A stretch of DNA of 64,000 nucleotides, from NCBI GenBank assembly GCA_009602735.1, contig WELA01000853.1, forward strand, positions 15,947 to 79,946, written 5' to 3'. This DNA is from Mesotaenium endlicherianum (taxonomy: Eukaryota). Positions 32,322 through 62,741 of this stretch are shown here, piece by piece (position 1 is the first letter of the stretch; every line of letters begins with the position of its first letter). Made by a program: the position numbers and the translations under genes. The notes under the pieces are model-generated. The model was not told where the DNA came from. It ran no database searches and was given only the letters and a program-made list of their open reading frames with translations.

Positions 32322-32861
32322 TGTAGTGAAACAGATAGATAAAGTACTTAGTAAAACAGAATACTTTATCTATTCAAGACAAGGATCTTTGAACACAAGT
32401 GGTAGCTTCTCGAAAGAGAGATGGCTTCTTGAAAGTTAATATATTTCTGGATTTTGGCAAGTGCAAGAGTGATTCTGGAATGTCTTTCTATGTTCTAGCT
32501 CTTGTTTATATACTTGCTACATAAGTAATTTCTAGGAAAGTGTATGTTGATGTGTTGGCACCCAACACATCCCAAAACTTGCCACCTCTTTCTAGAATAA
32601 TGTACACATGTCCTTTTGACCTAAAAATGGCACATTTGACTTTTGCCACATGGAGTTCTTCTAGGTCTTTCCTCTAACTTCGAAAATGCCTTGGAAGGTT
32701 CAAAGGACATGAACCAAGTTACTAGAGTACCTATTCACACTTGACTCCACACAATACTACTCCAAATATATTTGAAAACATTAAAATATATGCAAACTAA
32801 TATATAATAACTCAAATCACTACATCACCCCCCCGATAGAAAAAGCGACGTCTCGGCGCGT

Positions 32862-32985
32862 CAAGTCAGGTCTTACACATGTGGAGCAAACTAGTCAACA
32901 GTTTCAAGTCAGATGCCACACATGTGAAGAGGACTAGTCAAAGGCGCCAAGTCAGGTGCTACACATGTAAGGTAGACTAGGCAAG
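32862..32985 (+). repeat. Three ~43-bp tandem units in the E1 3' UTR
   Basis: CAAGTCAG.T...ACACATGT....GACTAG.CAA repeated three times. Confidence 0.75.
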
Positions 32986-33593
32986 GTCGTAGGTGGTGTG
33001 ACCTTATTGGCTAGCCTACTCCTTAATGATAAAGAAAATTGTACAAGTTGGCCCAGAATCTGCCACGAACTCAAAAATTCATAGCGGCCACAGAACTGCT
33101 CCAAATCTGAAAATTCGAGTGCCAGACGGACCGCGTCGGAGAACTCTACCGGGTCACCAAATTTGAGAGCATTCTCATTTCTGGAGTGTCGTTGAGAGCT
33201 GAGAGAGTAGGCACTCCTCCAAATCTGTGCAGAAACTTCTGAAAATCATAAGTCCTTCTATACTTCTCCAAATTCTGCAAACTAAGTCTCAAACTGGGCG
33301 CTGTAAGATGTTCTACCAGAGTCTTGAGTTTCAGAGCATTCCAAGTTCAGGGGAGGGCACAATGTCAGAAGGCATATTCTGCCCTAACAATGCCAGCAGC
33401 CTGACCCCCTTCTACTTAGAGCATCATATCTCTCTCACCAGTGCTCCAAATTGAGCAAACTTGGACTCTAAATGACCGGCTACTCATGGACTACAGCCAG
33501 GTAAATTTTCAGAATTTATTATGCAGAGACCTATTACCAGTAGCAGTTTTAGTTTTCTGTCCAGAAACTGCGAGAAGAGAAGAGTGTCTAATG

Positions 33594-36500: not shown

Positions 36501-37202
36501 TTCCGGGGAGAACACTTCTTTGTAGTCCTCTAAGACTTCTTGTATCTCCTTGGGAACGGGGCTGCCTTCTTGACTCTCGATGTCTTTCTTGATGTCTTTT
36601 GGCGTGATCAAGGCCAAAAGAAGCTCGTGTCCCTTCCTCACAAGTCTCTTGAGTTGGAGGGCGGACAATAGTATCTCGTGTGCCGGCTTCTGGATGTCTT
36701 GGGTCTGGATATTCTGGATTGCGCGCAAAATACAGATTCTTGAAGTGATGTCATTCTTGATCTTGATAGTACCGGTCCTCCAATCAACTTGGGGGTTGTG
36801 CTTGGTCAACCAAGGCGTCCCTAGGATGACGTCGTACTTGCCCAATTGCATGGGGGAGAACACTACTCTATCCTTGAAGGACTTGATAGAGAGTGCCAAG
36901 GGGTACGTCTTCTTGGAAGGGGTAGTATAGGAGAATCCATCGGGCATCATAATCTCCTCGTCGTGGTCAAGAGTTCGCATAGTAATACCGTGCTTGGTGG
37001 CAAAATCTGCAGCAATGAAGTTGCCTTGAGCTCCGCTATCCACCAAGATGTGGACCTTCTCTCCTCCAAGGTAACCTCTCAAACTCATTGGGGCTGGAAC
37101 GTCGTCTTCAACGGGGGTCTCCACCTCACTTGGCGTGTTGCCTTCTCGTGAAGTGGGTCTTGGGGTGGTAGGCTCCTGGCCTACCGGCGCTGTCCGTTTT
37201 TT
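33594..37202 (-). CDS. pol: E1 Pol (PR-RT-RNaseH-IN-chromodomain), translated by -1 frameshift from gag
   Basis: [28 protein letters not shown] zinc finger, [26 protein letters not shown]...YLIKWKGY...NSW. Confidence 0.96.
37167..37202 (-). promoter_or_regulatory. E1 -1 ribosomal frameshift signal
   Basis: Slippery A AAA AAC (37202-37196) in the gag frame, followed 10 nt later by hairpin GGTAGGC-CAGGA-GCCTACC. The -1 frame is the pol ORF. Confidence 0.8.
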
Positions 37203-38461
37203 GACAACTTTTTGGGGCATGAAAGTGCACGATGGCCCTTTTCCTTGCAATAAAAGCATAGTCCAGCCGTCATGAGAGCTTCTTTTTCAGCCGGGGAGAG
37301 TCTTGCTTTCACTCCTTGCTGGTTTCTTGCATCATAAGTGTCATTGGAGGGTCTTCCACTCTTCCGGGCAGCCGCGGGGTCCCTTTTAATAACTCCGATT
37401 TCCATGGGTGTGGGTCCAGATTCGGATGTGGAAGGGGCTGCGTACACCCGCGTCGTCGGTACCCGTGAAGATGAAGGCACGGAGTGCTTGAAATCCAAGG
37501 TATCCACCTTTTGGGCCACTTCAATGATCTTTGAGAAGTCCGTCAAGTCGCGTAACTCCACTTCCTTTGCCACCTTGGGTTTGAGGCCAAAGATGTAGCG
37601 GTCAATCTTCTCCTCGAGAGACATGTTGGGGATCTCAAGAGTGAGGGCGTGAAATCTGGATGTATACTCTTGAACGGACGTCGTTTGCTTGAGATGGTGG
37701 AGCTTTCCTCGGGCAATCTTCTCCGCATTGATGGGCATGAATTGCTTCTTGAGGGCCTCACGAAAATCTGCCCATCTTGCATATGATGGTGGGGGCTCTT
37801 GGCCGAGCATGGGGTGCGCCATAGCTTGATATATAGCCGCTTGATAGTTACGCCACCATGATGTTGCTGCTCCTCTAAGTAAGGTAACGGCAAAGGGAAC
37901 GTAGTCCTCCTCGGGTACTTCAAGGAATGCGAGGTACGTCTCCACTTGGTAGAGCCATAAATTCAGGTTGGCACCTTTCCCGGGGTTGAAAGTGTCGGGT
38001 TTGCCGGGCTTGATGAGTTTCCTTGCTCTCGTTGGCTCTTGTGGAGGCGCTTGAGCCGGGGCTGGATTTTGAGCATTGCTCGCAATAGGGGCAACCATGG
38101 CAGCCATAGCTTCTCTTGACGCTTGCACGGTTGCTTCATAGGTGGCCAAGCCCACTTGGTTGTGGACGGTCATTAGGAAGGCTGCCCACTCATTTGCGGG
38201 AACTCCTTGTGGTGGGGTCAACTTTGCTATAGCGGCTGCCACGGGATTTGACGGTGCTCCTCCTTGTGGTGCTTCTTGTTGTTGGAGATTTCCTTGAGTA
38301 GGCTCTCCCATCGACGCTGGAGGAGGGTGTGCTCCTCCTTGTGGTGCTTCTTGTTGTTGCAGATTTTCTTGAGTGGGCTCTCCCATCGGCGCTGGAGGAG
38401 GGTGTCTTGGAGAGGAAGGGCTTCCTTCGAAAGCTTGCTGTTGGTCTTGAGGATCGGCCAT
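37181..38461 (-). CDS. gag: E1 Gag
   Basis: Retrotransposon gag core ([19 protein letters not shown]) and [14 protein letters not shown] knuckle. A 25-aa N-terminal tandem duplication lies at ~38253-38402. Confidence 0.95.
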
Positions 38462-40117
38462 CTTCTTGTGCTACCAAAGTGCCTAGCTCCGATACCACTG
38501 TAGTGAAACAGATAGATAAAGTACTTAGTAAAACAGAATACTTTATCTATTCAAGACAAGGATCTTTGAACACAAGTGGTAGCTTCTTGAAAGAGAGATG
38601 GCTTCTTGAAAGTTAATATATTTCTGGATTTTGGCAAGTACAAGAGTGATTCTGGAATGTCTTTCTATGTTCTAGCTCTTGTTTATATACTTGCTACATA
38701 AGTAATTTCTAGGAAGGTGTATGTTGATGTGTTGGCACCCAACACATCCCAAAACTTGCCACCTCTTTCTAGAATAATGTACACATGTCCTTTTGACCTA
38801 AAAATGGCACATTTGACTTTTGCCACATGGAGTTCTTCTAGGTCTTTCCTCTAACTTCGAAAATGCCTTGGAAGGTTCAAAGGACATGAACCAAGTTACT
38901 AGAGTACCTATTCACACTTGACTCCACACAAAACTACTCCAAATATATTCGAAAACATTAAAATATATGCAAACTAATATATAATAACTCAAATCACTAC
39001 ATAAGTGGTAGTAGCGAAATGCCAAGCAATGCATTTAAGTGTGATTTAAGGCCAAATAACGCCTTAGGCAAATGATACTTCGGGTTGATGGGAGATGGCT
39101 ATGGGTTTGGTTAGCCGAGGTCCTACAAACATGGTTGACCCCCAACTTACTTATAAGCAACTTAACAATTAATAAAAGATCTTCATATCATCAAGTAATA
39201 TTTATGGTGTTTTCCGATCAACTTATTAATCAGCAAACGAGGGCACAACCAACGTAAGCAATACGCACAAGTCAACGAGCATTAATGAAATGAATCGACT
39301 TACCAAATAGGCGATTAACAATTAATAAAGATCTTTATATCAGCAAGTAATCTTTATGGTATTTCCGTTAACTCGTTAAACGGCAAAGGACAATACACTA
39401 GCAGGGAATACTACTCGTCAGTCAAATGAGAGTAAACTAGCATCAATAATGCAAATCAGTAAACTCATACATAAGCAAGGTTAGAAGACAGTGCGTATCA
39501 ATGGCTTCTCGCCTTGGATTCAGATCTCTCTCAGTAAGCTGTACAAGAGAGTTGGCCTCGTTTCCGAATGCCGAACTCGAGAGCAATGCCTAGCATATGT
39601 ACATGGAATGAGTTTACTGTTCAACGGTCAGTGCGATGGCACCGCCTACCCGGGAGTTAACCACGTTGGTAGGACCTCGGTTAACCAAATCCACCGCCAT
39701 CTCCCATCATCCCGAATAGCCATCCATCATGGGGATGTCATCTGGCCATTCATCTAGCAGGTGGTACTTAGATGCATATCAAGGCAGTTCGCTGCTACCG
39801 AGCACGGAAGTCAGCTGGCTGTCAAAGAATGTGTCAGCAAGCTGACTTAAGTTGACTTCAGCCTGCTGCTTTCGGCTGAGTCATTAAACTGATAATTATG
39901 TAAAGTCCAGCAGACTGACTATTAACTAAAGTTCAGCAGGCTGAACTTAATTAACTATTATATTTAAATGAATATTATATCCACTAATATACTGATTCAT
40001 TACAATCCCTCCAACTTAACTTGTTGTCGCCTCGACAACATTAAACTGCAGAAATTTTAAATAAGGGAACTGAACCTGACCAGCCTCCCTTACTGACTGC
40101 CTCTTCAGCGTGTCACC

Positions 40118-41794
40118 TTAAGGGGTTGTTCCTGGGGCTTCAGGATCAGGAGACGGAGATCTGGACCTAGATCTGGACAGCCCTCTAGGTCTGTCAGCTG
40201 GCCTTCTAAAGAACCCTGTTTGCTCTAAAGTTGGCCCTCGAGGAGAACGGAGGATGGTGGCCTGCTCTTCAACCACTTGGGTGTTGATTCCCACATAGAC
40301 AGGCATTCCAGTAGGATGCTGAAATACATTGGCTAGAGGTACATGCCCCTGAGCGGAGGGGGAGGCTGGCATACCTCTGGCCCACCCGCGTGTCCCTCTT
40401 CTGGCACCCCTGTCCTCTGGGGATTTCTGTCTGTGTCTGCTGCCCAGTACAGTCAGATCAGCTTCTTCCCCTGCTTGGGCAGGTGGGCTGGGGGAGCGAG
40501 CGCGGGGTCCAGTTGTCGCCATAACGGGGATCACATTCCACACACCTGATCGTGGTTCTTTAGGAAGTGCCACTGCCTGTCCCTGGGTATCCTGAGTACC
40601 TGCTGCTGATGCTTCTCCTCTGCCTTGTTCTTCTTCCTCATCCTCCTCATCCTCCTCCTCGGAGAGAGTAGGGGTCTCGTCCACTAAGTCGTCCTGCTCC
40701 CTAGTAGACATGGAGTAGTCTACCGACCTCCCTTTCTTAGGGCGCGCTGGAGGTTGCTTGGCCTTCAGCCTACTGATATCTATCCGGCCTGCATTCTTTG
40801 CCCATTTGACAAAGGCATGCTTTCCCTTAGAGAAGTACTCTCTTCCCCTCCTCCTATGTTCCTTGGTCTCTGCATTCATATTGCTCAGGCATCCATTCAG
40901 CCTGGGGTCCCAAGGGGCAATGTGAGGTGGTAGGATGAGATAGCCGTCTAGGCCATAGTGGAAGTCATCCGGTTGGGCTCGGTCACACTCCTGCTTCTTA
41001 TTTGTGACGGTCATCCACCTCCAGTCTGTTGGCTGCTGGTAGTACTGGGGTCCGTGCTCAGCCTTCCTCAGTTTACACGGGAACCAGTGGGGAGAGAACA
41101 TCTGCTGTCCTGCTTCCCTGGCCAAGTACTCCCAGCTCCTTCTCTCAACTTCATTGTAAGCTGGCAGGAGTGTGAGGTAGAATACCGTATCCTTAAAGCT
41201 ATCGGGCCGCATGCTCACCATCCGGATGAGTCTCTGATCTCCCACTATTCCCGGTATGGGGACCGGCTTGTCCTCTGAATCATCTGCGAGATACCGGGCC
41301 TGCTCTGCTGTATAGCCCACCATCTTAGCATAATCTTCGTAAAGGACCACGCCGGTGTGTGTCTCGATGTACCTGTCCAGTGCTGTAGCTCCTTCCTTCT
41401 GTAGCAGTGTTGTCTGTTCCAGCCTGTTGATCTCCTGGGCTGCCAGCAATGCTTCCTTCAGGTTATCGAAGTTTTGGCCACCCACCACAGTATACCTGTA
41501 AGTGGCCAAGCTCTTCTGTCTGTCCGCTTCAATCTTTTTTCTTTTCTCCTCTTCTGCCGCTGCCGCTTCTTCTTGCTGTTTCTTCTGTCTCTCCTCCTCA
41601 GCCTTCCTGAGGTTTTCCGCTTCCTGATCCTTCTTCCTCTGTGCCTCTTCTGCCGCCTCTTGTTGTTTGCGGACCCTTTCTTGTTCTCTCCTGGTGAGGG
41701 ACGTCGCCGCCAGCTCCTTCTGGTATTGCTCCATTGTCCTCCTGGCTTCTTCTGCCTTGCGCTTTCTGTCCTCCTTTTGTGTGGTGGGCGCCAT
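40118..41794 (-). CDS. E2 ORF3: accessory protein of unknown function (~558 aa from ATG 41794)
   Basis: Intact ORF inside the element in sense orientation. N-terminal E/K/Q/R coiled coil, central aromatic-rich globular domain, acidic and SR-rich tail. Homologous to the E3 ORF3 remnants. Confidence 0.88.
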   Translation of the reverse strand: MAPTTQKEDRKRKAEEARRTMEQYQKELAATSLTRREQERVRKQQEAAEEAQRKKDQEAENLRKAEEERQKKQQEEAAAAEEEKRKKIEADRQKSLATYRYTVVGGQNFDNLKEALLAAQEINRLEQTTLLQKEGATALDRYIETHTGVVLYEDYAKMVGYTAEQARYLADDSEDKPVPIPGIVGDQRLIRMVSMRPDSFKDTVFYLTLLPAYNEVERRSWEYLAREAGQQMFSPHWFPCKLRKAEHGPQYYQQPTDWRWMTVTNKKQECDRAQPDDFHYGLDGYLILPPHIAPWDPRLNGCLSNMNAETKEHRRRGREYFSKGKHAFVKWAKNAGRIDISRLKAKQPPARPKKGRSVDYSMSTREQDDLVDETPTLSEEEDEEDEEEEQGRGEASAAGTQDTQGQAVALPKEPRSGVWNVIPVMATTGPRARSPSPPAQAGEEADLTVLGSRHRQKSPEDRGARRGTRGWARGMPASPSAQGHVPLANVFQHPTGMPVYVGINTQVVEEQATILRSPRGPTLEQTGFFRRPADRPRGLSRSRSRSPSPDPEAPGTTP

Positions 41795-42061
41795 CCTGCA
41801 CATGTAACCAGGGCACAAGTTAGTAGGATATGGACCTTTGTCATAGGGATTGCAGGAAGTATGTTAGTATTTAGTATAGTGGCTTCGCTGCTGTTTACCT
41901 TACAGGATGATTGCTAAAAGTTGACGTAGTTGCGATGCGCTACACATAAACGTATGAGTGTGTTTTTATCGCTCTCGCTCACTAACTGTCATATATTTTC
42001 CCCTCCAACTTAAATGGAGACAGGACCGCCTGTCACCTTCCCGTGTCAACTGAAATGACAG

Positions 42062-45000
42062 TTATGGAGGGACTCCAGCGGCCCGAAGGTGGAACCGTGT
42101 CAACGCCCCTTTGGCATTGGTCAAGTGGTCCTTAAACTCCCAAGTGTCCCCAGAGGCATCGTAACCCTTCCATCGAATGAGGTATTTCATGACATATTTA
42201 GACGATCGACGGACCGAGCGAGCGTCTAAAATCTCATCGACCTCATATTCCTCAGGGTCGCCGTCCCGGACAGCGGGGACCGGTCCCGGTTGGACAGGGA
42301 ACCGACCTGTGAACAGTGTATCACCTTTGATGTACGGTTCCAGGAAGGAGACATTAAAGACCGGGTGCCCCTTGTATTCAGCTGACATGTTCAGTTTGTA
42401 AGCATTCTGACCGACACGACGGACCACCGAATATGGACCGACCCAGACAGGGCCAAGCTTTTTCTTGACCACACCAGGGAGGTACAGGTGCTGAGAATGC
42501 AGTTTGACTAAATCCCCCTTGGAAAATGTCAGTTCCCGACGGTGTTGATTAGCGTATTTTTGTTGGTTTTCTTGGGCCGTGTGCAAGTTTCGTTGGACTT
42601 CTGACAGGGTGTCAGCAAACTCCTGAGTTAACTGGAGGGAGACCGGGTTGTCAATCCCTTCAGGGTGAGTTAAAGATTCCCCTAGCACATCTAGAGGAGA
42701 CTTAGGGACTCTACCCAGGCTGAGTTCAAAAGGAGTTTTGCCCGTTGACGCGTGCACCGCACTGTTGACCGCAAACTGAATTTGAGGCAACAGGTCATCC
42801 CAATTATCTTGTTTTTGGTTAATATATGCTCTCAGCACCTCCTGCAGAACTCGGTTAGTTCTTTCAGTCTGCCCATCAGTCTGAGGGTGGTTTGCTGTGC
42901 TGAGCAGCTGTTTGACTCCCATTAACCCCATTAAAGCTCTCCAGAACTTAGAGGTGAATTTTGAGTCTCTGTCTGAGATGATATTAGAAGGGAGCCCATG
43001 TTGGCATACTACATGGTTGTAAAACTGTCTCGCTGTTTCGAGTGCAGTCACTTTGACAGTTGTGGGGATAAAAATGACCATTTTTGTCAGTTTATCCACG
43101 ACTACCAGTATTGAATCATGCCCGTTGGCAGTTCTTGGTAGTGAGACCACCCAGTCCATGGATATAGTTTCCCAGCGTCCCGCTGGGATGGGTAGCGGTT
43201 GCAAGAGACCTCCGGGTGGTGTGTGCCGAGACTTATTTCTCTGACACTGGTCACAGGACTTGACATATTTCAAGACCTCCCGGGGTAACCCCTCCCAATG
43301 ATAATGTTTTGCCAGTTTGCCAACAGTTTTGGCCTGCCCCAAATGTCCACCCAGGAGACTGTCATGAGCTTGACTCAGTAAGAGAGACCTTATTTCCAAG
43401 TTATTAGGAATGACCAGCTTCAGCCTGCCTGAAGTGGTTTCAGTCACCCAGACCCCTCCCTTGAGCTTATACCCGAGTGCAGTAGCACGACACACACCAG
43501 TAGTGGGGCTGGGCTCAAATGTTGGGTCAGAAAGGTAGGCTTTCCTAAGTTGTTCAAGGAAGGACTTTTTCACCTTTAGTGAAGTGAGTGCACACAGGAC
43601 TTTATCTACAGCATGCTGACTAAAGTTCCTTTCTTGCAAGTCAGGTCTTCTAGAGAGTGCATCAGCAGGATTCAACTTCCCTGGTTTGTAGTCGATCTGG
43701 ACTTGGAACTGCTCCAGCATCTGGCTCCAGCGGTTCTCCCTCCTCGACAGCTTGGACTTCTTCTGAAAGTGGGTCAGAGCTAGATGATCTGTAATCACCT
43801 TAAAAGCTTTACCATGTAAGTATGCTCTCCACTGTTTGAGTACATGAATGATAGCTAGCAGCTCTTTATCATGCACTGAGTAATTAATCTCCGCTGGATT
43901 AAATTTCATAGACTCATACAACACAGGATGCCACTCCTGCCGTACCTTACCATCCTTTGTGGTTTTGTCAGCAGGCTGCAACAAAATAGCACCCATGGCA
44001 AAATCAGAGGCATCAGTAACCACCTGCACCGGTTTGCTGGGGTCATACACGGCTAGCACTGGGGCAGAACAAAGGGCATCTTTAAGGGTCTGGAAGGCAG
44101 CCTGCTGCTCTTCCCCCCACACATACCCGATGTCTTTCTTAGTAAGGTCAGTCAGTTTACTGGCCTTTGTGGAATAATTCTCAATAAATCTCCTATAGTA
44201 GTTAGCCAACCCGAGGAAGGATCTAACTTCAGAGACAGACTGTGGTACTGGCCAGTCCCTTATGGTCTGGACTTTCTTAGGATCCACACTGATGCCCTCT
44301 TTACTGACAACGTGGCCTAAGAATTCAATACTTTCCTTAAAGAAATCACACTTGCTCATTTTAGCATACAAGTGATTTTTCCGCAGAGTGTCCAGCACTT
44401 TCTTTAAGTGTTCAGTGTGCTGAGCTTCATCTTTAGAGAAAATTAAAATATCATCCAGGAAAACTTGCACAAACTTATCCAAATAAGGTCTGAAAATGTC
44501 ATTCATAGCACCCATAAAGGTAGCAGGAGCATTAGTCAGTCCAAATGGCATCACGTTGAACTCATAGTGTCCATAACGTGTGCGGAAAGCAGTCTTGTGT
44601 TCATCCCCCTCAGCAATTCTGATTTGATGATAACCACTCTTGAGATCTATCTTACTGAACACCTTAGCGCCAGACAGGGTATCAAGCAAGTCCTCGATTC
44701 TGGGTAAAGCATACTTGTTCTTTACTGTAATTCTGTTCAGGGCTCTGTAATCCACACACATCCGCATACTGCCATCCTTTTTCTTAACAAATAGGATAGG
44801 TGCGCCGTACGGTGATTTACTGGGAGAAATGTAACCATTTTCCTCCAGCTCTGCAATCTGTGTTTTCAACTCCTCGCTCTCCAAATAAGACAAGCCATAA
44901 GTGCGTTGCCAGGGTGGCTGGCTACCAGGTAATAGATCAATCCTATGATCTACTTCCCTTTTAGGGGGTAGTCCTGGAGGCATGTTAAACACATCAGTGT

Positions 45001-45871
45001 ACTGAGCAACAATTTTTGCAGCAGTAGGGTGCTCCGGAGGGCTTACCTTTTTCTCAACCACTTCTTCAGGTTGAGGAGGTACCTCTCTTAGCAGCAGACA
45101 GAACATTCTGTCTTCCTTCTGGTTCCAGCTTTTGACGAACTCCATTGCATTCAGCAACTTGCATCCTTCTGGAAGCCTCTTCTTTTCCTTCATTTGCCAT
45201 CCACACAGGACAAGAGGAAGAGCACTGGTGGGTGCCAAGTCAGTCTGCCCATCACTGGCTCCTCTCACTTTAACTGTACCTCTGCTCCAACACACTTCAG
45301 CTTGATGTCTATTAAGCCAGGACCTGCCTAGCACGAGATCATAAAAGCCAGTGTTGAGTACCTCAAATGTAAGCGTTTCAGTTAGAACTGCAATGCCAGA
45401 ACCTAACTGGACCTCAATAGGCTTGGTTATAACTCCTCCCGGGATACTTGAGGCATCTCCAAGGAATATTTTTCTATTCCCTTGGGTGACAGTAGGCAGC
45501 CTTAGCCGCTTAACTAAGTCCTTGTGGATAAAAGTATGTGACGCCCCTCCGTCAACAAATGCCCTCACCTTCCTACCTGCAATCATGCAATGCAGTAGGA
45601 TAGGGGGGACTGTCTTTTCCTGACTTTCGCATTGTTCTCCTGACGTAGCAAAGAAATGTTGGACATCAGGTGGAACAAGAGCATCCAGAGTGTGCACTCT
45701 CTGGACGTCTATATTACTGATGGTCTCCTTTATCTGTTTGTCAGGCATGCATAGTGAATCCAGTTCAGCAGGACCCATAATACCTGCTACGAGGGCAGCT
45801 AGTGACGACTCACTATCTCTAGCATCCTCACAGTCAGTAGACTGGATTACTGACTGTTGCTGTCTTTTAAA
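42062..45871 (-). CDS. pol: E2 Pol (PR-RT-RH-IN-chromodomain), via -1 frameshift
   Basis: [54 protein letters not shown]...YLIRWKGY...DTW. The frame is open up to the slippery site. Confidence 0.96.
45830..45871 (-). promoter_or_regulatory. E2 -1 frameshift signal
   Basis: T TTA AAA (45871-45865), a 7-nt spacer, then a perfect 10-bp stem ACAGTCAGTA/TACTGACTGT (45857-45830). The -1 frame reads [10 protein letters not shown]...GIMGPAEL into pol. Confidence 0.85.
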
Positions 45872-47325
45872 GGCTGGTCTTTTCTCTCGACCTTAGGCAG
45901 GTGCTTGACCGGACACTGTTCTCTGTAGTGGCCTTTCTGCTGACAATGGTAGCAAGTAGATTTTGCTGAGGCTGGTCTCGGCTTAGTCCTACCACCACCC
46001 CTTCCATAGCCACCTCGAGAGGGACCACCTCTACCTCTAGACTGAATAGCATTGTACTCATACTCATATTCATCACCCTGATTATCCTCAGCCTGGTCTC
46101 CTTCAACTGCATTGTAGGAACCGTGGGGCTTTTTGACAATCTTAGACACCAAAGCGTTACTCTGGCGCTTGTGATTGAACTGCTGCTGATCCCAGGCGTC
46201 AGCATCCTGGATCAAGTCAGCCAGTTTCTCATACTTTTTCTCAGCAAAATGACCAGAGACCTCGGATTTCAAGCCATACCTGAAGTATGCTATCCTATAC
46301 CGTTCTGGCAAATCAGGCTGCTTCATCATGTTCTCTTGGAACTTTTGAGCAAACTCAGCAACTGAAGTGGTCTGCTTCAGTGTCAGGGAGATCATCGCAT
46401 AGATAGCTTTCTCCTGCTGGTTGATGACATCAAACTTCTCATGCAACTTCTCGACAAACTCTACCCACGTAGGGTCACCGAGTTGCCGAGCCTTACGCTC
46501 TTCCTTCCAGTAAAGCCACCAGTCTGCGGCACTGCCTTTCAGTAGCGCACCGGTGTGCCTGACCTTCTCGTAATCTTGCAGTTCTGGGTAGTTCTCCAGC
46601 CACTGCTCAACATCCGCGAGAAACTTGATCAGGTAATATTTTCTGTTTCCCTCAGGATCATAGTCCTGGGGAGGTTTCGGCTTGGGCTTACTAGGCCCTC
46701 GGCCACCACCACTAGTGGTGTGAGACCCCAGTTGGTCTCTGTCCCGGAGTAGGGACATTATGATTCTTTTGTCCTCCTGCTGGGACTGATACATGGTCGC
46801 CATTTGCGACTGCATCTGAACGAACAATGCTCCCAAGTCTACATTTTGGGGTGGTAGATTAGCAAATGCAGCAGCAGCATTGGCATCTACTCGCTGAGTA
46901 GTGTCCTCAACAATCCCTCTTGCTCCTGCAGCAGCAATTCCTGCCGCATTCAGCCGGTCACGTATTTGACCTAGGGGTACATTGAGTTGTACGGCAGGAG
47001 GTGGGTTCAGAACATTGGCCCTTGATGCCATAAGTTCTTCAACAGTGCGCTCGTCAGCTGGCTGTCCTTCCCTCCTTTGTATATCTTCAGCGGCCTTTGC
47101 TACTTGTTCAGCTTCTAGTCTGGCTATCTCCTCCTCAGCTTGCTGAGCTGCGACTGAGGCAATAGCAGCTGCCTCATCTGCAGCCTCCCTAGCTGCAGTA
47201 TCCGCTACTGCTTCCGAATAGGTACGGTTTCCCGCTACATGGCTTTCCGCCTGGTTTTCGACATTCTCGTTATCCTGGTTCTCCATGTCTCGGGAGTTGC
47301 TAGTTTGAGACCTTGTCCTTACCAT
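45847..47325 (-). CDS. gag: E2 Gag
   Basis: MVRTRSQ start, [23 protein letters not shown]-rich stretch and [14 protein letters not shown] knuckle. Confidence 0.95.
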
Positions 47326-48104
47326 ACAAAGAAGACTGTGATAACTGCTCCGATACCACTGAAATGAATCGACTTACCAAATAGGCGATTAACAATTAAT
47401 AAAGATCTTTATATCAGCAAGTAATCTTTATGGTATTTCCGTTAACTAGTTAAACGGCAAAGGACAATACACTAGCAGGGAATAATACTCGTAAGTCAAA
47501 TGCGAGTAAACTAGCATCAATAATGCAAATCAGTAAACTCATACATAAGCAAGGTTAGAAGACAGTGCGTATCAATGGCTTCTCGCCTTGGATTCAGATC
47601 TCTCTCAGTAAGCTGTACAAGAGAGTTGGCCTCGTTTCCGAATGCCGAACTCGAGAGCAATGCCTAGCATATGTACATGGAATGAGTTTACTGTTCAACG
47701 GTCAGTGCGATGGCACCGCCTACCCGGGAGTTAACCACGTTGGTAGGACCTCGGTTAACCAAATCCACCGCCATCTCCCATCATCCCGAATAGCCATCCA
47801 TCATGGGGATGTCATCTGGCCATTCCTCTAGCAGGTGGTACTTAGATGCATATCAAGGCAGTTCGCTGCTACCGAGCACGGAAGTCAGCTGGCTGTCAAA
47901 GAATGTGTCAGCAAGCTGACTTAAGTTGACTTCAGCCTGCTGCTTTTGGCCGAGTCATTAAACTGATAATTATGTAAAGTCCAGCAGACTGATTATTAAC
48001 TAAAGTTCAGCAGGCTGACTACTAACTAAAGTTCAGCAGGCTGAACTAAATTAACTATTATATTTAAATGAATATTATATCTACTAATATACTGATTCAT
48101 TACA

Positions 48105-52908: not shown

Positions 52909-53710
52909 TGAAATGAATCGACTTACTAAAAAGCGATTAATAATTAATGAAGATCTTTATATCAGCAAGTAATCTTCATGGTATTTTCTGTAGATTGATT
53001 AAACAGCAAAAGACAACACACTAGCAATGGACAATACTCGTAAGTCAAATGGAAGTAAACTAGCATCAATAATGCAATCGGTAAACTCACACATAAGGAA
53101 GGCTAGGAGACAGTGCATATCAATGGCTTCTCGCCTTGGATTCAGATCTCTCTCAGTAAGCTGTACAAAAGAGTTGGCCTCGTTTCCGAATGCCGAACTC
53201 GAGGGCAATACCTAACATATGTACATGGAATGAGTTTACTGTTCAACGGCCAGTGCGATGGCACCGCCTACCCGGGAGTTAACCACGTTGGTAGGACCTC
53301 GGTTAACCAAATCCACCGCCATCTCCCATCATCCCGAATCGCCATCCATCCTAAGGATGTCATCTGGCCATTCATCTAGCACACCACACTTAGATGCATA
53401 TTTAGGCAGTCGCTGCTACCGAGTACGAAAGTCAGCTGGCTGTCAAAGAATGTGTCAGCAAGCTGACCTAAGTTGACTTCAGCCTGCTGCCCCCGGCTGA
53501 GTCGTTTAACTGATTGTTTTATAAAATCCAGCATACTCAATATTAACTAAAGTTTAGCAGGCTGAACTTATTTAACCATCATATTTAAATGAATATTATA
53601 TCAACCAATGTACTAATTCATTACGATCCCTCCAACTTAACACGTTGTCGCCTCGACTACACTAACACTAATAACAGCGTGCTGTCCCTTCCGTCCCCAG
53701 CCTATTGCTA

Positions 53711-55877
53711 TTAGGAGGGAGATGTCCCTGGGGCCCTATACTCAGGGGAGCCAGACTTCCTCCTGTCTTAGAATCTCCTGAAGCCTGGGGGATCCGCGTA
53801 GGGGCCCAGCGGAGAACGCAGTAACTGGACTGTTTCCTCCTGCACAGTCTGAAACTGAAGGGAGGTAGCCTTCTCCTGGGCAGCCCTCAAATTGACAGGT
53901 ACATATACCGGCAACCCAGAAGGATGTTGCATGACATGAGCCAAGGGCACATGCCCTCTCTGCAAGGGAGATGCTGGCAGGCCTCTGGCTATCTCACGAG
54001 CAGCTGTAGTGATTTAAGTTATTTTATATATTAATTTGCATATATTTTAATATTTTCAAATATATTTGGAGTACTATTGTGTGGATTCAAGTGTGAATAG
54101 GTACTCTAGTGACTTGGTTCATGTCCTTTGAACCTTCTAAGGCATTTTCGAAGTTAGAGGAAAGACCTAGAAGAACTCCACGTGGCAAAAGTCAAATTCG
54201 TCATTTTTAGGTCAAAATGACATGTGTACATTATTCTAGAAAGAGGTGGCAAGTTCTGGGATGTGTTGGGTGCCAACACATCAACATACACCTTCCTACA
54301 AATTACTTATGTAGCAAGTATATAAACAAGAGCTAGAACATAGAAAGACATTCGAGAATCACTCTTGTACTTGCCACAATCCAGAAATATATTAACTTTC
54401 AAGAAGCCATCTCTCTTTCAAGAAGCTACCACTTGTGTTCAAAGATCCTTGTCTTGAATAGATAAAGTATTCTATTTTACTAAGTACTTTATCTATCTGT
54501 TTCATTGCAGTAGCCCTCCTGTCTGCCCTGTCTGACTAGGTCTCCGTGCCTGCAGATGGGCTCTGTCCTCTGGCAGTTCCCAACCAAGTGATGTCCTCCT
54601 CTTCAGCGAGCTGTTGCAAGGCCATCTCAGTCTTCTCCCTTACAGGGGATGGGGCAGGTGTCAGGACCACAGCGGGGCTAGTGTCCTCCTCCTCGCCTTC
54701 CTCTTCTTCCTCTGACCGCTCCTCCTCTCCTTCCCCTGGTTCCTCTGAGACCGCTGGGGTTTCCTCTGTCAGCTGCTCTAGCTCTTCCCGAGAAAAAGAG
54801 TACCCCACTGACCTTCCCCTTTTGGGTGCTGGTGGAGGCTGTTAAGTCCGGACCGCATATAGGTCCTTTTCTCCCTGCTTGCTTGCCCATTTGGCATAAG
54901 CATGCTTCCCTTTAGAGAATGACTCACGGGGCCCTGCTCCTGTCCTCCTGCATTTCTTGGCTCATGCAGTCTCTTACTCCATCCCATCTTGGGTCCCAAG
55001 CTGCAATGTGAGGAGGCAACAGTATGTTTCCCTGTAGGTTTGTTAGGCAATCCTCATCCTTTGCCTTGTCATTCTGCTGGTCCCTCGTGTCGATGGTCAT
55101 CCACCGCCAATCGATGGGCTTCTGGAAAAAGGCAGAGTCTGTCCTTTTCAGGGTGCACGGGTACCAGTGCCCTGCGAAGTCCAGCTGACTGGTTTCCCTG
55201 GCCAAGAACTCCCAGCTTCTCCTCTCCACCTCATTATACATGGCCATGAACCGGTTATAGGGTGTAGAGTCCTTGAAGCTGTCCGCGTCCATGGGGATCA
55301 TCCTGATGACCCTATCCTTTCCCCAGATACTTGGGATCGATACAGCTCCTGTCTCATTCATTTGGGCCATTGCCTTGGCCTCTCTGACTGTATACCCTAC
55401 CATCCTGGCATAATCGTGGTAATGGAGTAGCTCTGTGCTGACCTCAATATACATGTCAAAGTAACCTGATGTCTCCCCTTCCCTTTGCACGATGTCCTGC
55501 TGTGCCACACTGCGACTTCTTTGGACATACTTGAAGGCCTCCTCCAGTAGATCAAAGCCCTTGCCCAGTATTGTGTAGCGGTAGCTGCTAATTCTCCTCT
55601 GTTCTTCTTCTTCAGCCTGCTGCTTCCGCCTCTCCTCGGCTTGCCTCTCCTCTTCCGCCTTCTTGGCCTCCTCTGCAGCTTTTCAGTCCAGTTCTTCTTG
55701 CCTGAGCCTGGCTTGCTCCTCCTCCTCCTTCTTCTTCTATGCCTCCCGCTGTTGTTGGAGTCGTTGTGATTCTCGAACGGAGATGGAGGAAGATTCGATG
55801 TCGCCACGGAATTGCAAGTAACCTGCATGTGCCTCTTCCGCTCTTCCCTTCCTCTTAAGTTTCGACTTCTGGGTCAT
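53711..55877 (-). pseudogene. E3 ORF3 (frameshifted, interrupted by a solo LTR)
   Basis: Fragments YNEVERRSWEFLARE, DWRWMT, LPPHIAAWDPR, PKRGRSVGYS and GHVPLAHVMQHPSGLPVYV match E2 ORF3. Confidence 0.88.
54005..54509 (+). mobile_element. Solo LTR of the E1 family
   Basis: Reverse complement of the E1 LTR, TG..CA ends, TSD GCAGC/GTAGC. Confidence 0.93.
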
Positions 55878-56235
55878 CCTGCTCAATCGTAAACTTAATG
55901 CAGTCAGTGGAGTCATGATACTTTGCCGCTACTAAGTGTCCGTAGTTAAGAAGAACGTGATAGGGAGAGTCCTTAATGTGTAGTACCTTGTGTAAGTGAG
56001 TATAAGAGAGAATTGAGTTAGAGAGAAAAAGTGAGTATGAGCGCAGGTTGAGTGTGTAGAGTGGTTATAAAAATTTCCCTGGCTGATCCCGAAACGGAAC
56101 ACACTCCCTCCAACTTAATTGTAAGGTGGGCTGTTTGTCAAGACTGTCACTATCTATCACTAATCGTCACATTGCCCTCCGACTTATATGGAGACAGGAC
56201 CTCCTGTCACCTGTCCATGGCCACTGAAATGACAG

Positions 56236-59200
56236 TAAGGGAGGGGCGCCAGCCGCCCGAAGGTAGAACCGTTTTAACGCCCCTTTGGCATTGGTCAGCT
56301 GGTCTTCAAATTCCCAAGTGTCTCCAGAGGCGTTGTAACCCTTCCATCTGACCAGGTACTTCATGACATGTTTAGATGAGCGACGGACAGAGCGAGCGTC
56401 TAAAATCTCCTCGACCTCATATTCCTCAGGGTCACCATCCCGGACAGCGGGGACCGGTCCGGGTTGGACAGGTAACCGACCTGTGAACAGTGCGTCACCT
56501 TTGATGTATGGTTCCAGGAAGGAGACATTAAAGACCGGGTGGCCCTTATATTTTGCTGACATGTTCAGTTTGTAAGCATTTTGATTGACACGGCGCACCA
56601 CCGAATATGGACCGACCCAGACAGGACCATGCTTTTTCTTGACCACACCAGGTAGGTACAGGTGCTGAGAATGCAGTTTGACCAAATCGCCCTTAGTAAA
56701 TATCAGTTCACGACGGTGCTGATTAGCGTATTTTTGTTGGTTTTCCTGGGCTTTCTGCAGGTTCTGTTGGACTTCTGACAGGGTGTCAGCAAACTCCTGT
56801 GTTAACTGGAGGGAGACCGGATTGTCAATCCCTTCAAGGTGAGTTAAAGACTCCCCCAATACATCTAAAGGAGACTTAGGGACTCTACCCAAACCGAGTT
56901 CAAAAGGAGTCTTGCTCGTTGACGCGTGCACCGCACTGTTGACCGCAAACTGGATTTGAGGTAACAAATCATCCCAATCATCTTGTTTTTGGTTAATATA
57001 GGCTCTCAGTACCTCTTGCAGAACTCGGTTAGTTCTTTCAGTCTGCCCATCAGTCTAAGGGTGGTTTGCTGTGCTGAGCAGCTGCCTGACTCCCATTAAC
57101 CCCATTAAAGCTCTCCAGAACTTAGAGGTAAACTTTGAGTCTTTGTCTGAGATGATATTAGAGGGTAGTCCATGTTGGCATACTACATGGTTGTAGAACT
57201 GTCTCGCTGTTTTGAGTGCAGTTACTTTGACAGTTGTGGGGATATAAATGACCATTGTTGTCAGTTTATCCACGACTATCAGTATGGAATCATGCCCAGT
57301 GGCAGTTCTTGGTAGTGTTACCACCCAGTCCATGGATATTTTCCCAGTGGCCAACTGGGATGGGCAGCGGTTGTAAGAGGCCCCCCGGTGGTGTGCTTAG
57401 ACTTATTCCTTTGGCACTGGTCACAGGACTTAACATATTTCAAGACCTCCCGAGGTAATCCCTCCCAATGATAATGTTTTGCCACTTTGCCAACGGTCTT
57501 GGCCTGCCCCAAATGCCCACCCAATAAACTGTCATGGGTTTGACTCAGTAAAAGAGACCTTATTTCCAAGTTATTAGGAATGACTAGCTTCAGCCTGCCT
57601 AAAGTGGTTTCAGTCACCCAGACCCCACCCTTAAGTCTATACCCGAGTGCAGTAGCAGGACACACACCGTCAGTGGGGCTGGGCTCAAATGTTGTATTAG
57701 AAAGGTAGGGTTTCCTAAGTTGTTCAAGGAAGGACTTTTTCACCTTTAGTGAAGTCAGTGCACAAAGGTCTTTCTCTACAGCATGCTGACTAAAGTTCCT
57801 TTCTTGCAAGTCAGGTCTTCAAAAGAGTGCATAAGCAGGGTTCAACTTCCCTGGTTTATAGCCAATCTGGACTTGAAACTGCTCCAGCATCTGGCTCCAG
57901 CGGTTCTCCCTCCTCGACAGCTTGGACTTCTTCTGAAAGTGAGTAAGAGCTGAATGATCTGTAATCACCTTCAACGCTTTACCATATAAGTATGCTCTCC
58001 ACTGTTAGAGCACATGAATGATTGCTAGCAGCTCTTTATCATGCACTGAGTGATTAATCTCAGCTGGATTAAATTTCATATACTCATACAACACAGGATG
58101 CCACTCCTGCTTTACCTTACCATCCTTTATGGTTTTGTCAACAGGCTGCAACAAAATAGCACACATGGCAAAGTCATAGGCATCAGTAACCACCTGCACA
58201 GTTTTGCTGGGGTCATACACGGCTAGCACTGGGGCAGAACAAAGAGCATCTTTAAGGGTCTGGAAGGCACCCCGCTGCTCTTCCCCCCACACATACCCTA
58301 TGTCTTTCTTGGTAAGGGCAGTCAGTTTACTGGCCGTTGTTGAATAATTCTCAATAAAATCTCATATAGTAGTATGCCAACCCAAGGAAGGATCTAACTT
58401 CGGAGACGGATTGTGGTATAGGCCAGTCCCTTATGGTCTGGACCTCCTTAGGATCCACACTGATGCCCTCTTTGCTGACAACATGGCCATGGATTTCAAT
58501 ACTTTCTTTGAAGAAATCACACTTGCTCATTTTAGCATACAACTGGTTCCTTCTCAGAGTGTCCATGACTGTCTTTAAGTGTTCAGCATGCTGAGCTTCA
58601 TCCTTAGAGAAAATTAAAATATCATCCAAGAAGACTTGCACAAATTTGTCCAGGTAAGGTCTGAAAATGTCATTCATAGCACCCATGAAGGTTGCAGGAG
58701 CATTGGTCAGTCCGAATGGCATCACGTTGACCTCATAGTGTCCATAACGTGTGCGAAAGGCAGTCTTGTGTTCATCCCCCTCAGCAATTCTGATTTGATG
58801 ATAATCACTCTTGAGATCTATCTTACTGAACACTATAGCACCAGACAGGGTATCAAGCAAGTCCACGATTTTGGGTAAAGCATACTTGTTCTTTACTGTT
58901 ATTCTGTTAAAGGCTCTGTAATCAACACACATCCGCGTACTCCCATCCTTTTTCTTAACAAAGAGAATGGGTGCGCCATAAGGTGATTTACTGAAAGAAA
59001 TGTAACCATTTTCCTCAAGCTCTGCAATCTGTGTTTTCAAGTCTTTGCTCTCCACATAAGACAAGCCATAAGTGGGTTGCCAGGGTGGCTGACTCCCAGG
59101 TAATAAGTCAATCTTGTGATCCACTTCCCTCTTAGGAGGTAGTCCTGGAGGCATATTGAAAACATCAGCGTACTGAGCAACAATTTTTGCAGCAGTAGGG

Positions 59201-60036
59201 TGCTCCGGAGGGCTTACCTTGTTCTCAACCACTTCTTCAGGTTGAGGAGGTACCTCTCTTAGCAGCAGACAGAACATTCTGTCTTCCCTTTGGTTCCAGC
59301 TGTCGATGAACTCCATTGCATTCAGCAATTTGCATCCTCCTAGAAGCCTCTTCTTTTCCTTCATTTGCCATCCACACAGGACAAGAGGAAGAGCACTGGT
59401 GGGTGCCAAGTCAGTCTGCCCATCACTGGCTCCTCTCACTTTAACTGTACCTCTGCTCCAACACACTTCAGCTTGATGTCTATTAAGCCAGGACCTGCCT
59501 AGCACAAGATCATAGAAGCCAGTGTTGAGTACCTCAAATGTAAGCGTTTCAGTTAGAACTGTAATGCCAGAACCTAACTGGACCTCAATAGGCTTGGTTA
59601 TAATTCCTCCCGAGATACTTGAGGCATCTCCAAGGAATACTTTTCTATTTCCTTGGGTGACAGTAGGCAGCCTTAGCCGCTTAACTAAGTCCTTATGGAT
59701 GAAAGTATGTGACGCCCCTCTGTCAACAAATGCCCTCACCTTCCTACCTGCAATCATGCAATGCAGTAGGATAGGGGGGACTGTCTTTTCCTGACTTTCG
59801 CATTGTTCTCCTGACGTAGCAAAGAAATGTTGGACATCAGGTGGAACAAGATCATCCAAAGTGTGCACTCTTTAGAGATCTATATTGCTGATAGGTCTCC
59901 TTTATCTGGTTGTCAGGCATGAATAGTAAATCCAGTTCAGCAGGACCCATCATACCTGCTACGAGGGCAGCTAGTGACGACTCACTATCTCTAGCATCCT
60001 CACAGTCAGTAGACTAGATTACTGACTGTTGCTGTC
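56236..60036 (-). pseudogene. pol: E3 pol pseudogene
   Basis: ORF fragments 58351-59868, 58005-58292, 57318-57809, 57055-57354 and 56167-56967 are collinear with and highly similar to E2 Pol. Confidence 0.93.
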
Positions 60037-60042
60037 TTTTAA

Positions 60043-60740
60043 CACTAGGTATCCCATTGGACCATATATGGTCTAGCTAACCCCCATTTTTCAGCGCTGA
60101 CCTCCAGGGTGCTACAGTTGACCAACTGGTACAAATTTTGGCTCAAACGAACCGTACAGATTTGAACCTTAGGCGAAAAAATGCAAAATGGTCTTCCGAT
60201 TATTAACGACAAAGTTAGAGTGAAAAGAAGGAGGTTCAAAGTTCAGGTTCACAACAAAATTTCAAGTGAAAAGTCTGTCATACCCGAGGTCACTAAAGAG
60301 CTCTTAGAGCCATGACTTCTTCAAATGCGCCAAAAATAGTTGTGGGTGGTAAATTACTCATCCTTGCCACCTTCTGGGGAGATGCATGGGCGAAAAAGAC
60401 ATTTGGACAATATTACATAGAGTTTTTCTTAGTCGAAATTGTGAGAAAGGAGATTGTGAGGACTAAAAAGGAAAACTCATGGCTCATAGAAGTGTTGTAT
60501 GACAAAGAAAAGAAGCAATGGGAGGCATGGCAGGTCAGGCAGTACCTATCTACAGTGCCCGAAGAGTCTTGGTTTTATTTCGAGCCGCATGTAGTTCGTT
60601 TTGGCTTGGTTTCCTCAAGGGCCTCTTTGCTTTCAAATTCGAGAGAGAATGAGGGTCACAGTCTAATTTCGTCCTCCCAAGATCCAAATGATGACTCACA
60701 GCCAAGGTCTAGTGATGGTGAGGAGGATAAGGAGGATGAG

Positions 60741-60772
<32 letters not shown>

Positions 60773-61780
60773 GGATATTATGAGGAAGAGGGGCAGGCCT
60801 GACACCGGAAGAGGTAAGCAGCTGATGCTCATTGTTCCTACTGTTAAAAATGAGAAAAAGAAGAGGAGGAGAAGGGCAACTGCTCCATAACCATAATTTC
60901 TCCTTAACCATAACTTCTCCAAACATTGTGGTGCACTACAAAACACACAAAGACGCTGTTGATCAATTTTACAAGCTCTGTGTGAGGGATAAGTTCTTTG
61001 TCGAGACTTCTGCTGTGAGCTTAAAGTGGTGGCACAAACTATATTGGGGTCTATTTGATGCTGCCCTGGCCGATGCCTACATCCTCTACAACCTGGCCCA
61101 TCCTGAGAGTGACAGGTATCCCTTCATGTTAGATGTTGTAGCGGAGATGACAGACTTCCCTGATCCACATGAGGGGAGGCGCTTTCGCTGGAGTGCGGGG
61201 CGGGCTGGGATTGACAGGTTCCTAGGGAGACACTTCCCTAAGCACCTTCCAGGAGGCTCTAGACCAGGATGTCTAGTGTGCAAGAGCAAGTTGTATGACC
61301 TAGGCCATGAGAAGAGTAAGGTGAGGCCTAGCTATTGGTGCGCAACGTGTGGAGTAGCGCTTTGCCCCGCGCCTTGCTTTGAGGAGTACCATACCAACAG
61401 GCACATAGCACATGTAGATAGTGGCCCCTACAAGCTGAGTAGCAGTAAGAAGTAGGATTGTAGAGCAGAAGAACTGCAACTGAAACATATATGAAAGACT
61501 TTGTGCTCCATAAACAATTCAGCTTCATGTGTGCAAAGCTGTCGATTCTGCAATATTTTGCAACTAATAATTCATTTTTAATCATTTTAATTCATTATTT
61601 TGTATATAAATATTTATTTGTAAGTAAAGTAAGACCTTACTTTCAAGCTCCACTTTACAGATTACTATTTGCATGTGCAAAGAATAAATTATGAATTATC
61701 AACTGTGATGCTTTGGTGCATGAGGCACTAAAAAGTACGAAAAATACCCGGACCCCATATGGTCCACTAAGTACAGAGTG
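60043..61780 (+). mobile_element. Internally deleted piggyBac-superfamily DNA transposon
   Basis: Begins right after TTAA (60039-60042) with CACTAGGTATCCCATTGGACCATATATGGTC. Imperfect inverted end GACCCCATATGGTCCACTAAGTACAGAGTG at 61751-61780. The right TTAA is missing. Confidence 0.82.
60312..61455 (+). pseudogene. piggyBac transposase remnant: N-terminal acidic region (60312-60890) and C-terminal part with Cys-rich domain (~60915-61455); most of the DDD core is deleted
   Basis: PNIVVHY....AVDQ...KWWHKLYWGLFDAALADAYILY and HFP...CLVC...YWCATCGVALCPAPCFEEYH, typical of the PGBD C-terminus. Confidence 0.85.
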
Positions 61781-61867
61781 TGCCTCCACAAAGCTACTGA
61801 TTAGAATGAAGTGAAATTTGTTTCATATGATAGGTAAGACACATGCCTACCCCAAATTAAATCAACA

Positions 61868-61989
61868 ACTACTGCTTCCAAATAGGTACGGGTTCCCGCT
61901 ACATGGCTTTCAGCCTGATTTTTGACATTTTCGTTATCGTGGTTCTCCATGTCTCGGGAGTTGCTAGTTTGAGACATTGTCCTTACCAT
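61868..61989 (-). pseudogene. gag: 5' stub of E3 gag (rest deleted)
   Basis: [40 protein letters not shown] matches the E2 Gag N-terminus. Confidence 0.88.
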
Positions 61990-62741
61990 ACAAAGAAGAC
62001 TGTGATAACTGCTCCGATACCACTGAAATGTTTCGACTTACTAAAAAGGCAATTAATAATTAATGAGGATCTTTATATCGGCAAGGAATCTTTATGGTAT
62101 TTTCTGTTGATTGATTAAACGGCAAAAGACAACACACTAGCAGTGGAGAATACTCCGAAGTCAAATGGAAGTAAACTAGCATCAATAATGCAATCAGTAA
62201 ACTCACACATATGCAAGGCTAGGAGACAGTGCATATCAATGGCTTCTCGCCTTGGATTCAGATCTCTCTCAGTAAGCTGTACAAGATAGTTGGCCTTGTT
62301 TCCGAATGCCCAACTCGAGAGCAATACCTAGCATATGTACATGGAATGAGTTTACTGTTCAACGGCCAGTGCGATGGCACCGCCTACCTGGGAGTTAACC
62401 ACGTTGGTAGGACCTCGGTTAACCAAATCCACCGCCATGTTCTATCATCCCGAATCGCCATCCATCCTAAGGATGTCATCTGGCCATTCATCTAGCACAC
62501 CACACTTAGATGCATATTTAGGCAGTCGCTGCTACCGAGTACGAAAGTCAGCTGGCTGTCAAAGAATGTGTCAGCAAGCTGACCTAAGTTGACTTCAGCC
62601 TGCTGCCCCCGGCTGAGTCGTTTAACTGATTGTTTTATAAAATCCAGCAGACTCAATATTAACTATAGTTCAGCAGGCTGAACTTATTTAAGTATTATAT
62701 TTAAATGAATATTATATCAACCAATATACTGATTCATTACA

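Follow-up and report, generated by a model that had tools for sequence, protein, structure and literature searches.

A 64,000-nucleotide stretch of the Mesotaenium endlicherianum genome (GenBank assembly GCA_009602735.1, contig WELA01000853.1, positions 15,947 to 79,946 of the forward strand; referred to as the window) contains three Ty3/gypsy elements with chromodomain integrases on its minus strand, designated E1, E2 and E3, which belong to a retroelement nest filling the right half of the window. Two of them, E2 and E3, appear to share one recent backbone of gag, pol and long terminal repeats (LTRs) that carries two long-diverged versions of an orphan third open reading frame (ORF3), which were probably swapped as one unit through template switching (estimated probability about 0.7). 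An initial annotation of the window had proposed module exchange of ORF3, and this is supported by a stepwise change in divergence along the two elements and by a silent divergence of ORF3 far above that of pol. That recombination produced a mosaic and that it carries a new orphan accessory gene is well supported, whereas the role of the polypurine tracts (PPTs) at its edges and the history of its capture are hypothetical. The main parts of E2 and E3 are located as follows (positions in the window).

39286..48104, minus strand: E2, chromodomain LTR retrotransposon of the Ty3/gypsy type, intact; flanked by a 5-bp target duplication (39281-39285, 48105-48109)
47360..48104, minus strand: E2 5' LTR
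47347..47358, minus strand: E2 primer-binding site (PBS), one base past the 5' LTR
45847..47325, minus strand: E2 gag (Ty3 capsid, zinc knuckle)
42062..45892, minus strand: E2 pol, with protease (PR), reverse transcriptase (RT), RNase H (RH), integrase (IN), SH3 and chromodomain; coordinates from stop to stop
40118..41794, minus strand: E2 ORF3 (558 amino acids), in sense orientation between the internal PPT and the 3' PPT
39286..40004, minus strand: E2 3' LTR
52909..62741, minus strand: E3, decayed sister of E2; 5-bp target duplication at 52904-52908 and 62742-62746
53711..55877, minus strand: E3 ORF3, second version, disrupted by stops, a frameshift near 54930-54958 and a solo LTR
54005..54509, plus strand: solo LTR of the E1 family within E3 ORF3, 96% identical to the E1 LTRs; target duplication 4/5

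Stepwise divergence between E2 and E3

In pol (1205 codons), E2 and E3 are 91% identical on the amino acid level, with a proportion of synonymous differences (pS) of 0.216 (0.187-0.245), a synonymous distance (dS) of 0.25 and a nonsynonymous distance (dN) of 0.043, whereas the 506 aligned codons of ORF3 have an amino acid identity of 48%, a pS of 0.775 (0.717-0.838, saturated) and a dN of 0.46. Fourfold degenerate sites are changed at 75 of 487 positions (15%) in pol versus 58 of 95 (61%) in ORF3 (p = 5e-19), which corresponds to corrected distances of 0.17 and 1.26, respectively. Synonymous change at conserved residues amounts to 4-21% in all 10 full windows of pol and to 44-59% in all five full windows of ORF3, with no ramp between them. 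The spacer from the pol stop codon to the internal PPT is still well conserved (44 of 51 positions identical); similarity fades about 20 nt past this PPT and returns about 25 nt ahead of the 3' PPT, so that a zone of unalignable non-coding and diverged coding sequence extends over about 40046-41978. Alignments of the ORF3 leader and of the 3' untranslated region (UTR) were no better than those of shuffled sequences (score reached by 128 and 77 of 300 shuffles, respectively), and the two ORF3 versions are homologous end to end, with 56% identity of the cassette codons.

These data agree with the initial annotation in that similarity collapses abruptly between the PPTs, with edges located about 20-25 nt inside each of them, and the sliding-window comparison of the two elements, which had been set beforehand, gave a stepwise and not a gradual pattern. 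The comparison of silent divergence, likewise asked for there, placed ORF3 far above pol. About half of the ORF3 residues match, as had been estimated by eye, but the match is not limited to a core, since homology spans the whole protein. Judged from the substitution patterns, the split of the ORF3 versions long predates that of the backbone, and a history of ORF3 older than that of its backbone points to block exchange. The same patterns indicate that ORF3 is under purifying selection and hence a real gene. The stops, the frameshift and the solo LTR broke the E3 version only after its split from the E2 version, and decay of E3 was rejected as the cause of the step because it would strike pol equally.

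It is very improbable that no exchange took place and that ORF3 diverged in place, either by strong positive selection or by a locally raised mutation rate. Such a scenario could draw on the dN of ORF3, which is ten times that of pol, and on the high variability of extra ORFs in general (PMC6317226; this and the other articles cited by PMC number are represented here by excerpts). However, the silent sites of conserved residues and the non-coding flanks are as affected as the replacement sites, and positive selection was rejected because silent sites and UTRs have changed as well. Furthermore, the dN of ORF3 is far below its dS, and the balance of transitions and transversions is similar in both regions (26/32 versus 37/38). 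An excess of cassette variation is also absent among the E2-type copies in public sequencing runs X5, X6 and X11, where the longest listed contig pieces, which favour quiet regions, have 4 differences in 3724 nt of cassette versus 14 in 6378 nt of pol. A mutation rate raised only in this region is therefore unlikely.

The proposed block exchange of ORF3 is not the only sign of recombination in these elements. A second mosaic step was found inside pol near 45000, between the protease and the RT, where divergence between E2 and E3 changes from 3.6% (first 872 nt) to 9.1% (remaining 2981 nt; 0 of 2000 permutations). Since this step lies away from any PPT, the family recombines away from PPTs too. 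The proposal of a PPT-bounded swap made in the initial annotation is supported for the exchange itself, but it is weakened with regard to the PPTs as its cause.

Polypurine tracts and the proposed exchange of ORF3

The PPT copies and the predicted structures next to them are the following.

42055..42064, minus strand: left arm of a 10-bp perfect inverted repeat enclosing the E2 internal PPT; starts at the pol stop codon
42016..42037, minus strand: short predicted hairpin just ahead of the E2 internal PPT; kept in E3; alone not significant (z -1.1)
42001..42013, minus strand: E2 internal PPT copy, 13/13 match to the 3' PPT
41983..41992, minus strand: right arm of the same E2 inverted repeat; last stretch still similar to E3
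40022..40040, minus strand: 8-bp perfect hairpin just ahead of the E2 3' PPT; weakened in E3
40007..40019, minus strand: E2 3' PPT, two bases ahead of the TG of the 3' LTR
56175..56187, minus strand: E3 internal PPT 1, with 2 mismatches; corresponds to E2 42001-42013
56106..56118, minus strand: E3 internal PPT 2, exact extra (third) copy 69 nt downstream; TG two bases on; TATAA word at 56069
53628..53640, minus strand: E3 3' PPT

The PPT word matches the minus strand exactly at 40007-40019, 42001-42013, 53628-53640 and 56106-56118, and with two mismatches at 56175-56187. All of these positions had been given in the initial annotation, which had taken the perfect E3 copy as the counterpart of the internal PPT of E2; this role belongs to the variant. 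When up to two mismatches were allowed, six matches were obtained versus 1.76 expected, a number reached by 0 of 100 shuffles, with the PPT copies of E2 and E3 not being independent of each other owing to the kinship of the elements. The sixth match (36649, plus strand) was dismissed, as it lies within E1 pol and looks like chance. A repeated 13-mer by itself is not rare, because seven different words of at least 12 nt recur inside the internal region of E2. The weight of the internal repeat derives from the facts that the word is the PPT itself, that it starts 49 nt past the pol stop codon and that it recurs in E3. As in central PPTs, it is an exact copy of the 3' PPT (13/13 in E2 and in one E3 copy), and the internal PPT of E3 is enclosed by a stem related to the 10-bp arms of E2.

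ORF3 would have moved as a block when reverse transcription changed templates between RNAs packaged together. If the family recombines along its whole length, as the step in pol suggests, the cassette interior would be too diverged for crossovers, and repeated crossovers in pol and the LTR would erode differences up to the last shared signals, which would be the two PPTs and the hairpins next to them. These tracts would then be conserved edges, and perhaps pause sites too, rather than a dedicated swapping device. The LTRs of E2 and E3 are 90% identical and U3 is 88% identical from its very start, so a crossover near the 3' PPT is still needed. The doubled internal PPT of E3 fits a switch that retained the copies of both partners, and it is plausible that the PPTs served in the exchange as places where the switch landed or paused. 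The internal PPT may be kept by selection as a primer of a second plus strand, a predicted role that we rate at slightly below even odds.

A larger part would fall to the PPTs if the internal copy were the original PPT-LTR junction, if ORF3 had been captured there and if the twin PPTs actively directed the exchange, a scenario that we regard as possible but doubtful. The position of the internal PPT directly past pol is what would be expected for an ORF3-less chromovirus. The paired arms around it (10 bp and perfect in E2) occur also at the terminal PPTs of many copia elements (PMC2829016) and at E2's own 3' PPT, a TG follows 2-3 bases past both internal PPTs of E3 and in the form found in run X11, and the extra PPT of E3 recalls SERV-K/MER11, in which recombination left a relic PPT behind (PMC11379458). 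In contrast, none of 9 comparisons of the sequence past the internal PPT with the LTRs of today scored above shuffles, and the idea of a recognisable LTR relic at this site was rejected. ORF3-less joints were absent among the listed ones (15 of 336 contig joints and 15 of 17 RNA-read joints), and homologue searches did not recover a donor gene for ORF3. Recombination in pol near 45000 took place away from PPTs, and a fold is absent at the 3' PPT of E3 (z 0.11, compared with -2.97 in E2), with those at the internal PPTs not being significant. Still less likely is an extended version of this scenario, in which the old PPT-LTR junction would have kept working by priming a second plus strand and by providing, with its downstream arm and a TATA-like word, an internal promoter. 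Together with the 3' PPT, it would bound a self-contained, intron-bearing accessory cassette, encoding for example an anti-silencing factor in an arms race with the host, whose long-lived versions (E2 type, E3 type and perhaps more) would be swapped onto one backbone.

The proposed block exchange on a shared backbone is further illuminated by copies in public reads. At least half of E2's words are present in 20 of 24 listed runs, which stem from seven studies and bear five organism labels; the best-matching run may be the source sample itself. Loose ends that leave the E2 backbone at 42000 (X11, and eight RNA reads in X24) and at 40044 (X6) run into E3-like sequence, so that the E3-type cassette is not confined to a single copy. 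The ratio of cassette to pol depth, which is a weak hint and not a copy number, was 0.51-0.68 in four of five contig runs. There is no support for a form whose giant LTR would begin at the internal PPT, as none of the 24 loose ends listed (of 1556) showed mixed host flanks at about 41998. The pattern of the internal PPT and its context had 0 matches in metagenomes, none of 12 viral loci with the PPT and TG pattern had similarity to gag, pol or ORF3, and the integrase query did not match viral contigs. Contigs of X1 and X6 branch both ways at 41965-41966 in numbers, which suggests either that some copies carry additional sequence in the E2-type leader or that a third type of cassette exists. 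A single X1 contig joins 45784 and 45915 with a PPT-like word between them, possibly by a non-homologous switch at a PPT or as an artefact.

The ORF3 protein and its predicted expression

ORF3 consists of a charged helical N-terminus, a conserved core with many W, Y and P residues, an acidic low-complexity tail and a conserved C-terminal block, and basic clusters are common to both versions. It has no transmembrane segment (top 19-residue hydropathy 0.73), and features of an envelope (env) protein, i.e. an anchor or homology to fusion proteins, were not found, there being no significant match to ORF3 in Pfam, PHROG or PDB. A Pfam search for the domains of plant extra ORFs (plant mobile domain, Transposase_28, Athila ORF1) yielded only a weak charged-helix match below the cut-off. 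Word-index searches (lengths 319-1017 and 128-457) and searches of 1.84 billion representatives, viral and metagenome contigs, PDB and PHROGs retrieved no homologue, and the ESM Atlas returned no relative, a blank there being no proof of novelty. The AlphaFold model is unusable (mean predicted local distance difference test score, pLDDT, 40.7). ORF3 constitutes a new orphan, non-envelope protein family; as a tentative suggestion, the protein may be soluble and have an accessory role, probably in the nucleus, for instance in transactivation or in counteracting silencing.

The predicted introns of the ORF3 leaders, both of which are based on motifs, are located as follows.

41796..41898, minus strand: E2, 103 nt; donor AAG/GTA, branch word TACTAAC, acceptor CAG/G one base ahead of the ATG
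55879..55986, minus strand: E3, 108 nt; AAG/GTA, CACTGAC, CAG/G ahead of the ATG

The intron motifs are conserved in leaders that are otherwise unalignable between E2 and E3. Branch word and CAG are 24-30 nt apart in both, each leader contains exactly one AG/GTR word, and the predicted introns would remove two upstream ATGs in E2 and one in E3. The motif combining branch word and acceptor occurs once in the 7-8 kb internal region of each element, both times at the start of ORF3, and appeared in 2.7% and 2.2% of shuffles, although the pattern was picked post hoc. A short leader intron is sensible only on a subgenomic RNA, which favours an internal start; a TATA-like word (TATAA) is located at 56069 in E3. 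We give about an even chance to the prediction that ORF3 is made from a spliced subgenomic RNA via the conserved acceptor, most likely from an internal promoter past the internal PPT.

The two ORF3 versions could also stem from paralogous host genes that were captured independently at one site, but this is improbable. The intron-like feature and the TATA-like word do recall the leader of a host gene, and LTR elements are known to take up host RNA by template switching (PMC5131818). However, no cellular homologue was found among the 1.84 billion representatives, and both versions have PPT-linked motifs at both ends in common, which independent captures would not need.

Several observations weigh against the proposed exchange of ORF3 and its expression as an accessory gene. 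The full-length comparison covers two elements only and does not give the direction of the exchange, and the function of ORF3 is backed by neither a homologue nor a usable fold. Folding around the internal PPT does not reach significance (z -1.72 and -1.39), the TATA-like word of E2 (41995) is weak, a donor-like word just past the gag ATG represents an alternative to an internal promoter, and the cassette/pol depth ratio was 1.01 in X5. PolyA reads on the E2-type ORF3 were found in 0 of 3 RNA runs (7 of 7 bins empty), with no splice joint among those listed. In these runs, 6-12% of each of which was sampled, E2 is nearly silent, with 8-12 of 234-372 placed reads being 99% alike, and mapping against E2 could not capture RNA of the E3-type ORF3. 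The indexed runs holding E2 words included no listed RNA run. At 41986-43335, polyA reads from a diverged copy lie over the final part of pol and continue past the internal PPT into a start that resembles E3; they are likely antisense to the element, as the first mate is mostly on the minus strand.

Related elements and genomic surroundings

Extra PPTs ahead of a third ORF and the swapping of env genes are already known. In the excerpts of PMC2829016, Sireviruses, Athila4 and Calypso have extra PPT copies in the linker between pol and the 3' LTR of elements with env-like ORFs. As in E2 and E3, these are identical copies, some of them upstream of the third ORF, an inverted repeat surrounds the PPT, and splicing or an internal promoter has been proposed for the third ORF. 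A recombination aid has been proposed as the function of the extra PPTs in these elements, and their role is termed unclear (PMC2829016). E2 and E3 differ in being chromoviruses, in the paired arms of the upstream PPT, which are said to be absent at the upstream PPTs of Sireviruses, in an ORF3 without a membrane segment, and in the presence of two versions on one backbone. The sugar-beet chromovirus Bongo3 (Tekay clade) likewise has a second PPT directly past the chromodomain at the end of gag-pol, but in the excerpts of that article neither a third ORF between the PPTs nor an exchange is described (PMC3605345). Env swapping in endogenous retroviruses also replaces a gene between pol and the 3' LTR by template switching (PMC10536682), and a relic second PPT can remain, as in SERV-K/MER11 (PMC11379458), but ORF3 of E2 and E3 lacks envelope features and both versions belong to one orphan family.

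Like the elements with sense extra ORFs among plant LTR retrotransposons (PMC7264820; PMC6317226) and those with ORF3s in bdelloids (PMC5408684), E2 and E3 have a conserved ORF in sense orientation that follows pol and precedes the 3' LTR. According to the excerpts of these articles, most such ORFs lack known domains, splicing is frequent, and they are modular from lineage to lineage, and those of plants are tied mainly to Athila/Tat/Ogre and SIRE and not to chromoviruses (PMC7264820; PMC6317226). The internal PPT copy as a potential second plus-strand start resembles the central PPT of Ty1, HIV-1 and Arabidopsis EVADE (PMC7197481), although it is located past pol and 2 kb from the 3' LTR in E2, where priming is putative; in Ty3, a central PPT has not been identified (PMC5371799, excerpts). 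No report was found of a chromovirus with ORF3 versions exchanged between twin PPTs, in a search that excluded most subscription papers and did not cover the clade-wise supplements of PMC6317226. New features are the predicted intron of about 105 nt in both ORF3 versions, which ends one base ahead of the ATG, and the paired arms around the internal PPT, both recognised from sequence. Fast evolution versus acquisition or exchange of plant extra ORFs is a question posed in PMC6317226, and the E2/E3 family separates these options because its silent sites show that the ORF3 versions separated long ago and that the backbone common to them is young. E2 is a young, intact and widespread element suited to direct tests of ORF3 expression and PPT priming.

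E2 has the attributes of a chromovirus, namely LTRs with a target duplication, PBS, PPT, gag and the order PR-RT-RH-IN, and the C-terminus of its integrase carries a chromodomain (PF00385, E 2e-8, over the curated cut-off) in which the aromatic-cage residues are presumably present. Its PBS is probably of the initiator-tRNA-Met type. The nearest named RT relatives are plant and green-algal elements with roughly 45-55% identity, and in a quick RT tree (64 of 121 matching rows kept, without named clade references) E2 formed a long unresolved branch outside the seed-plant cluster. Members of the Tcn1 clade are mostly self-priming and without a tRNA PBS (PMC6317226), a loss that E2, with its tRNA-Met-like PBS one base after the 5' LTR, does not display. 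The LTRs within each pair are 98.6% identical in E2 and 95.1% in E3. The gag of E3 is mostly unalignable to that of E2, as foreign DNA took its place (60043-61868). This 1.8-kb insert has a weak match to a DDE-transposase zinc finger (PF13842, plus strand, below the cut-off) and TTAA at its junction, and is probably a piece of a DNA transposon with an adjacent deletion.

E1 (32322-39001) represents a separate chromovirus family with 43% pol identity to E2; it has no third ORF and a single PPT, which is separated from its pol by about 750 nt of non-coding sequence (32840-33594). Relics of older LTR-like sequences with 67-80% similarity to the E2 LTR are located at 31581-31986, 39003-39285, 48105-49006 and 30318-30436, and E1 and E2 sit inside such relics, which marks the region as a nested insertion hot spot. 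ORFs at 62742-64000 are interrupted by E3 and, by eye, resemble a tyrosine-recombinase (DIRS-like) element; a Pfam search of 62737-63390 gave no match. The window further contains an inverted 1.3-kb repeat of unknown kind (25955-27222 and 50008-51281, 94% identical) and, amid Gln/Glu-rich low-complexity stretches and assembly gaps, a protein-kinase exon on the minus strand (8177-9265).

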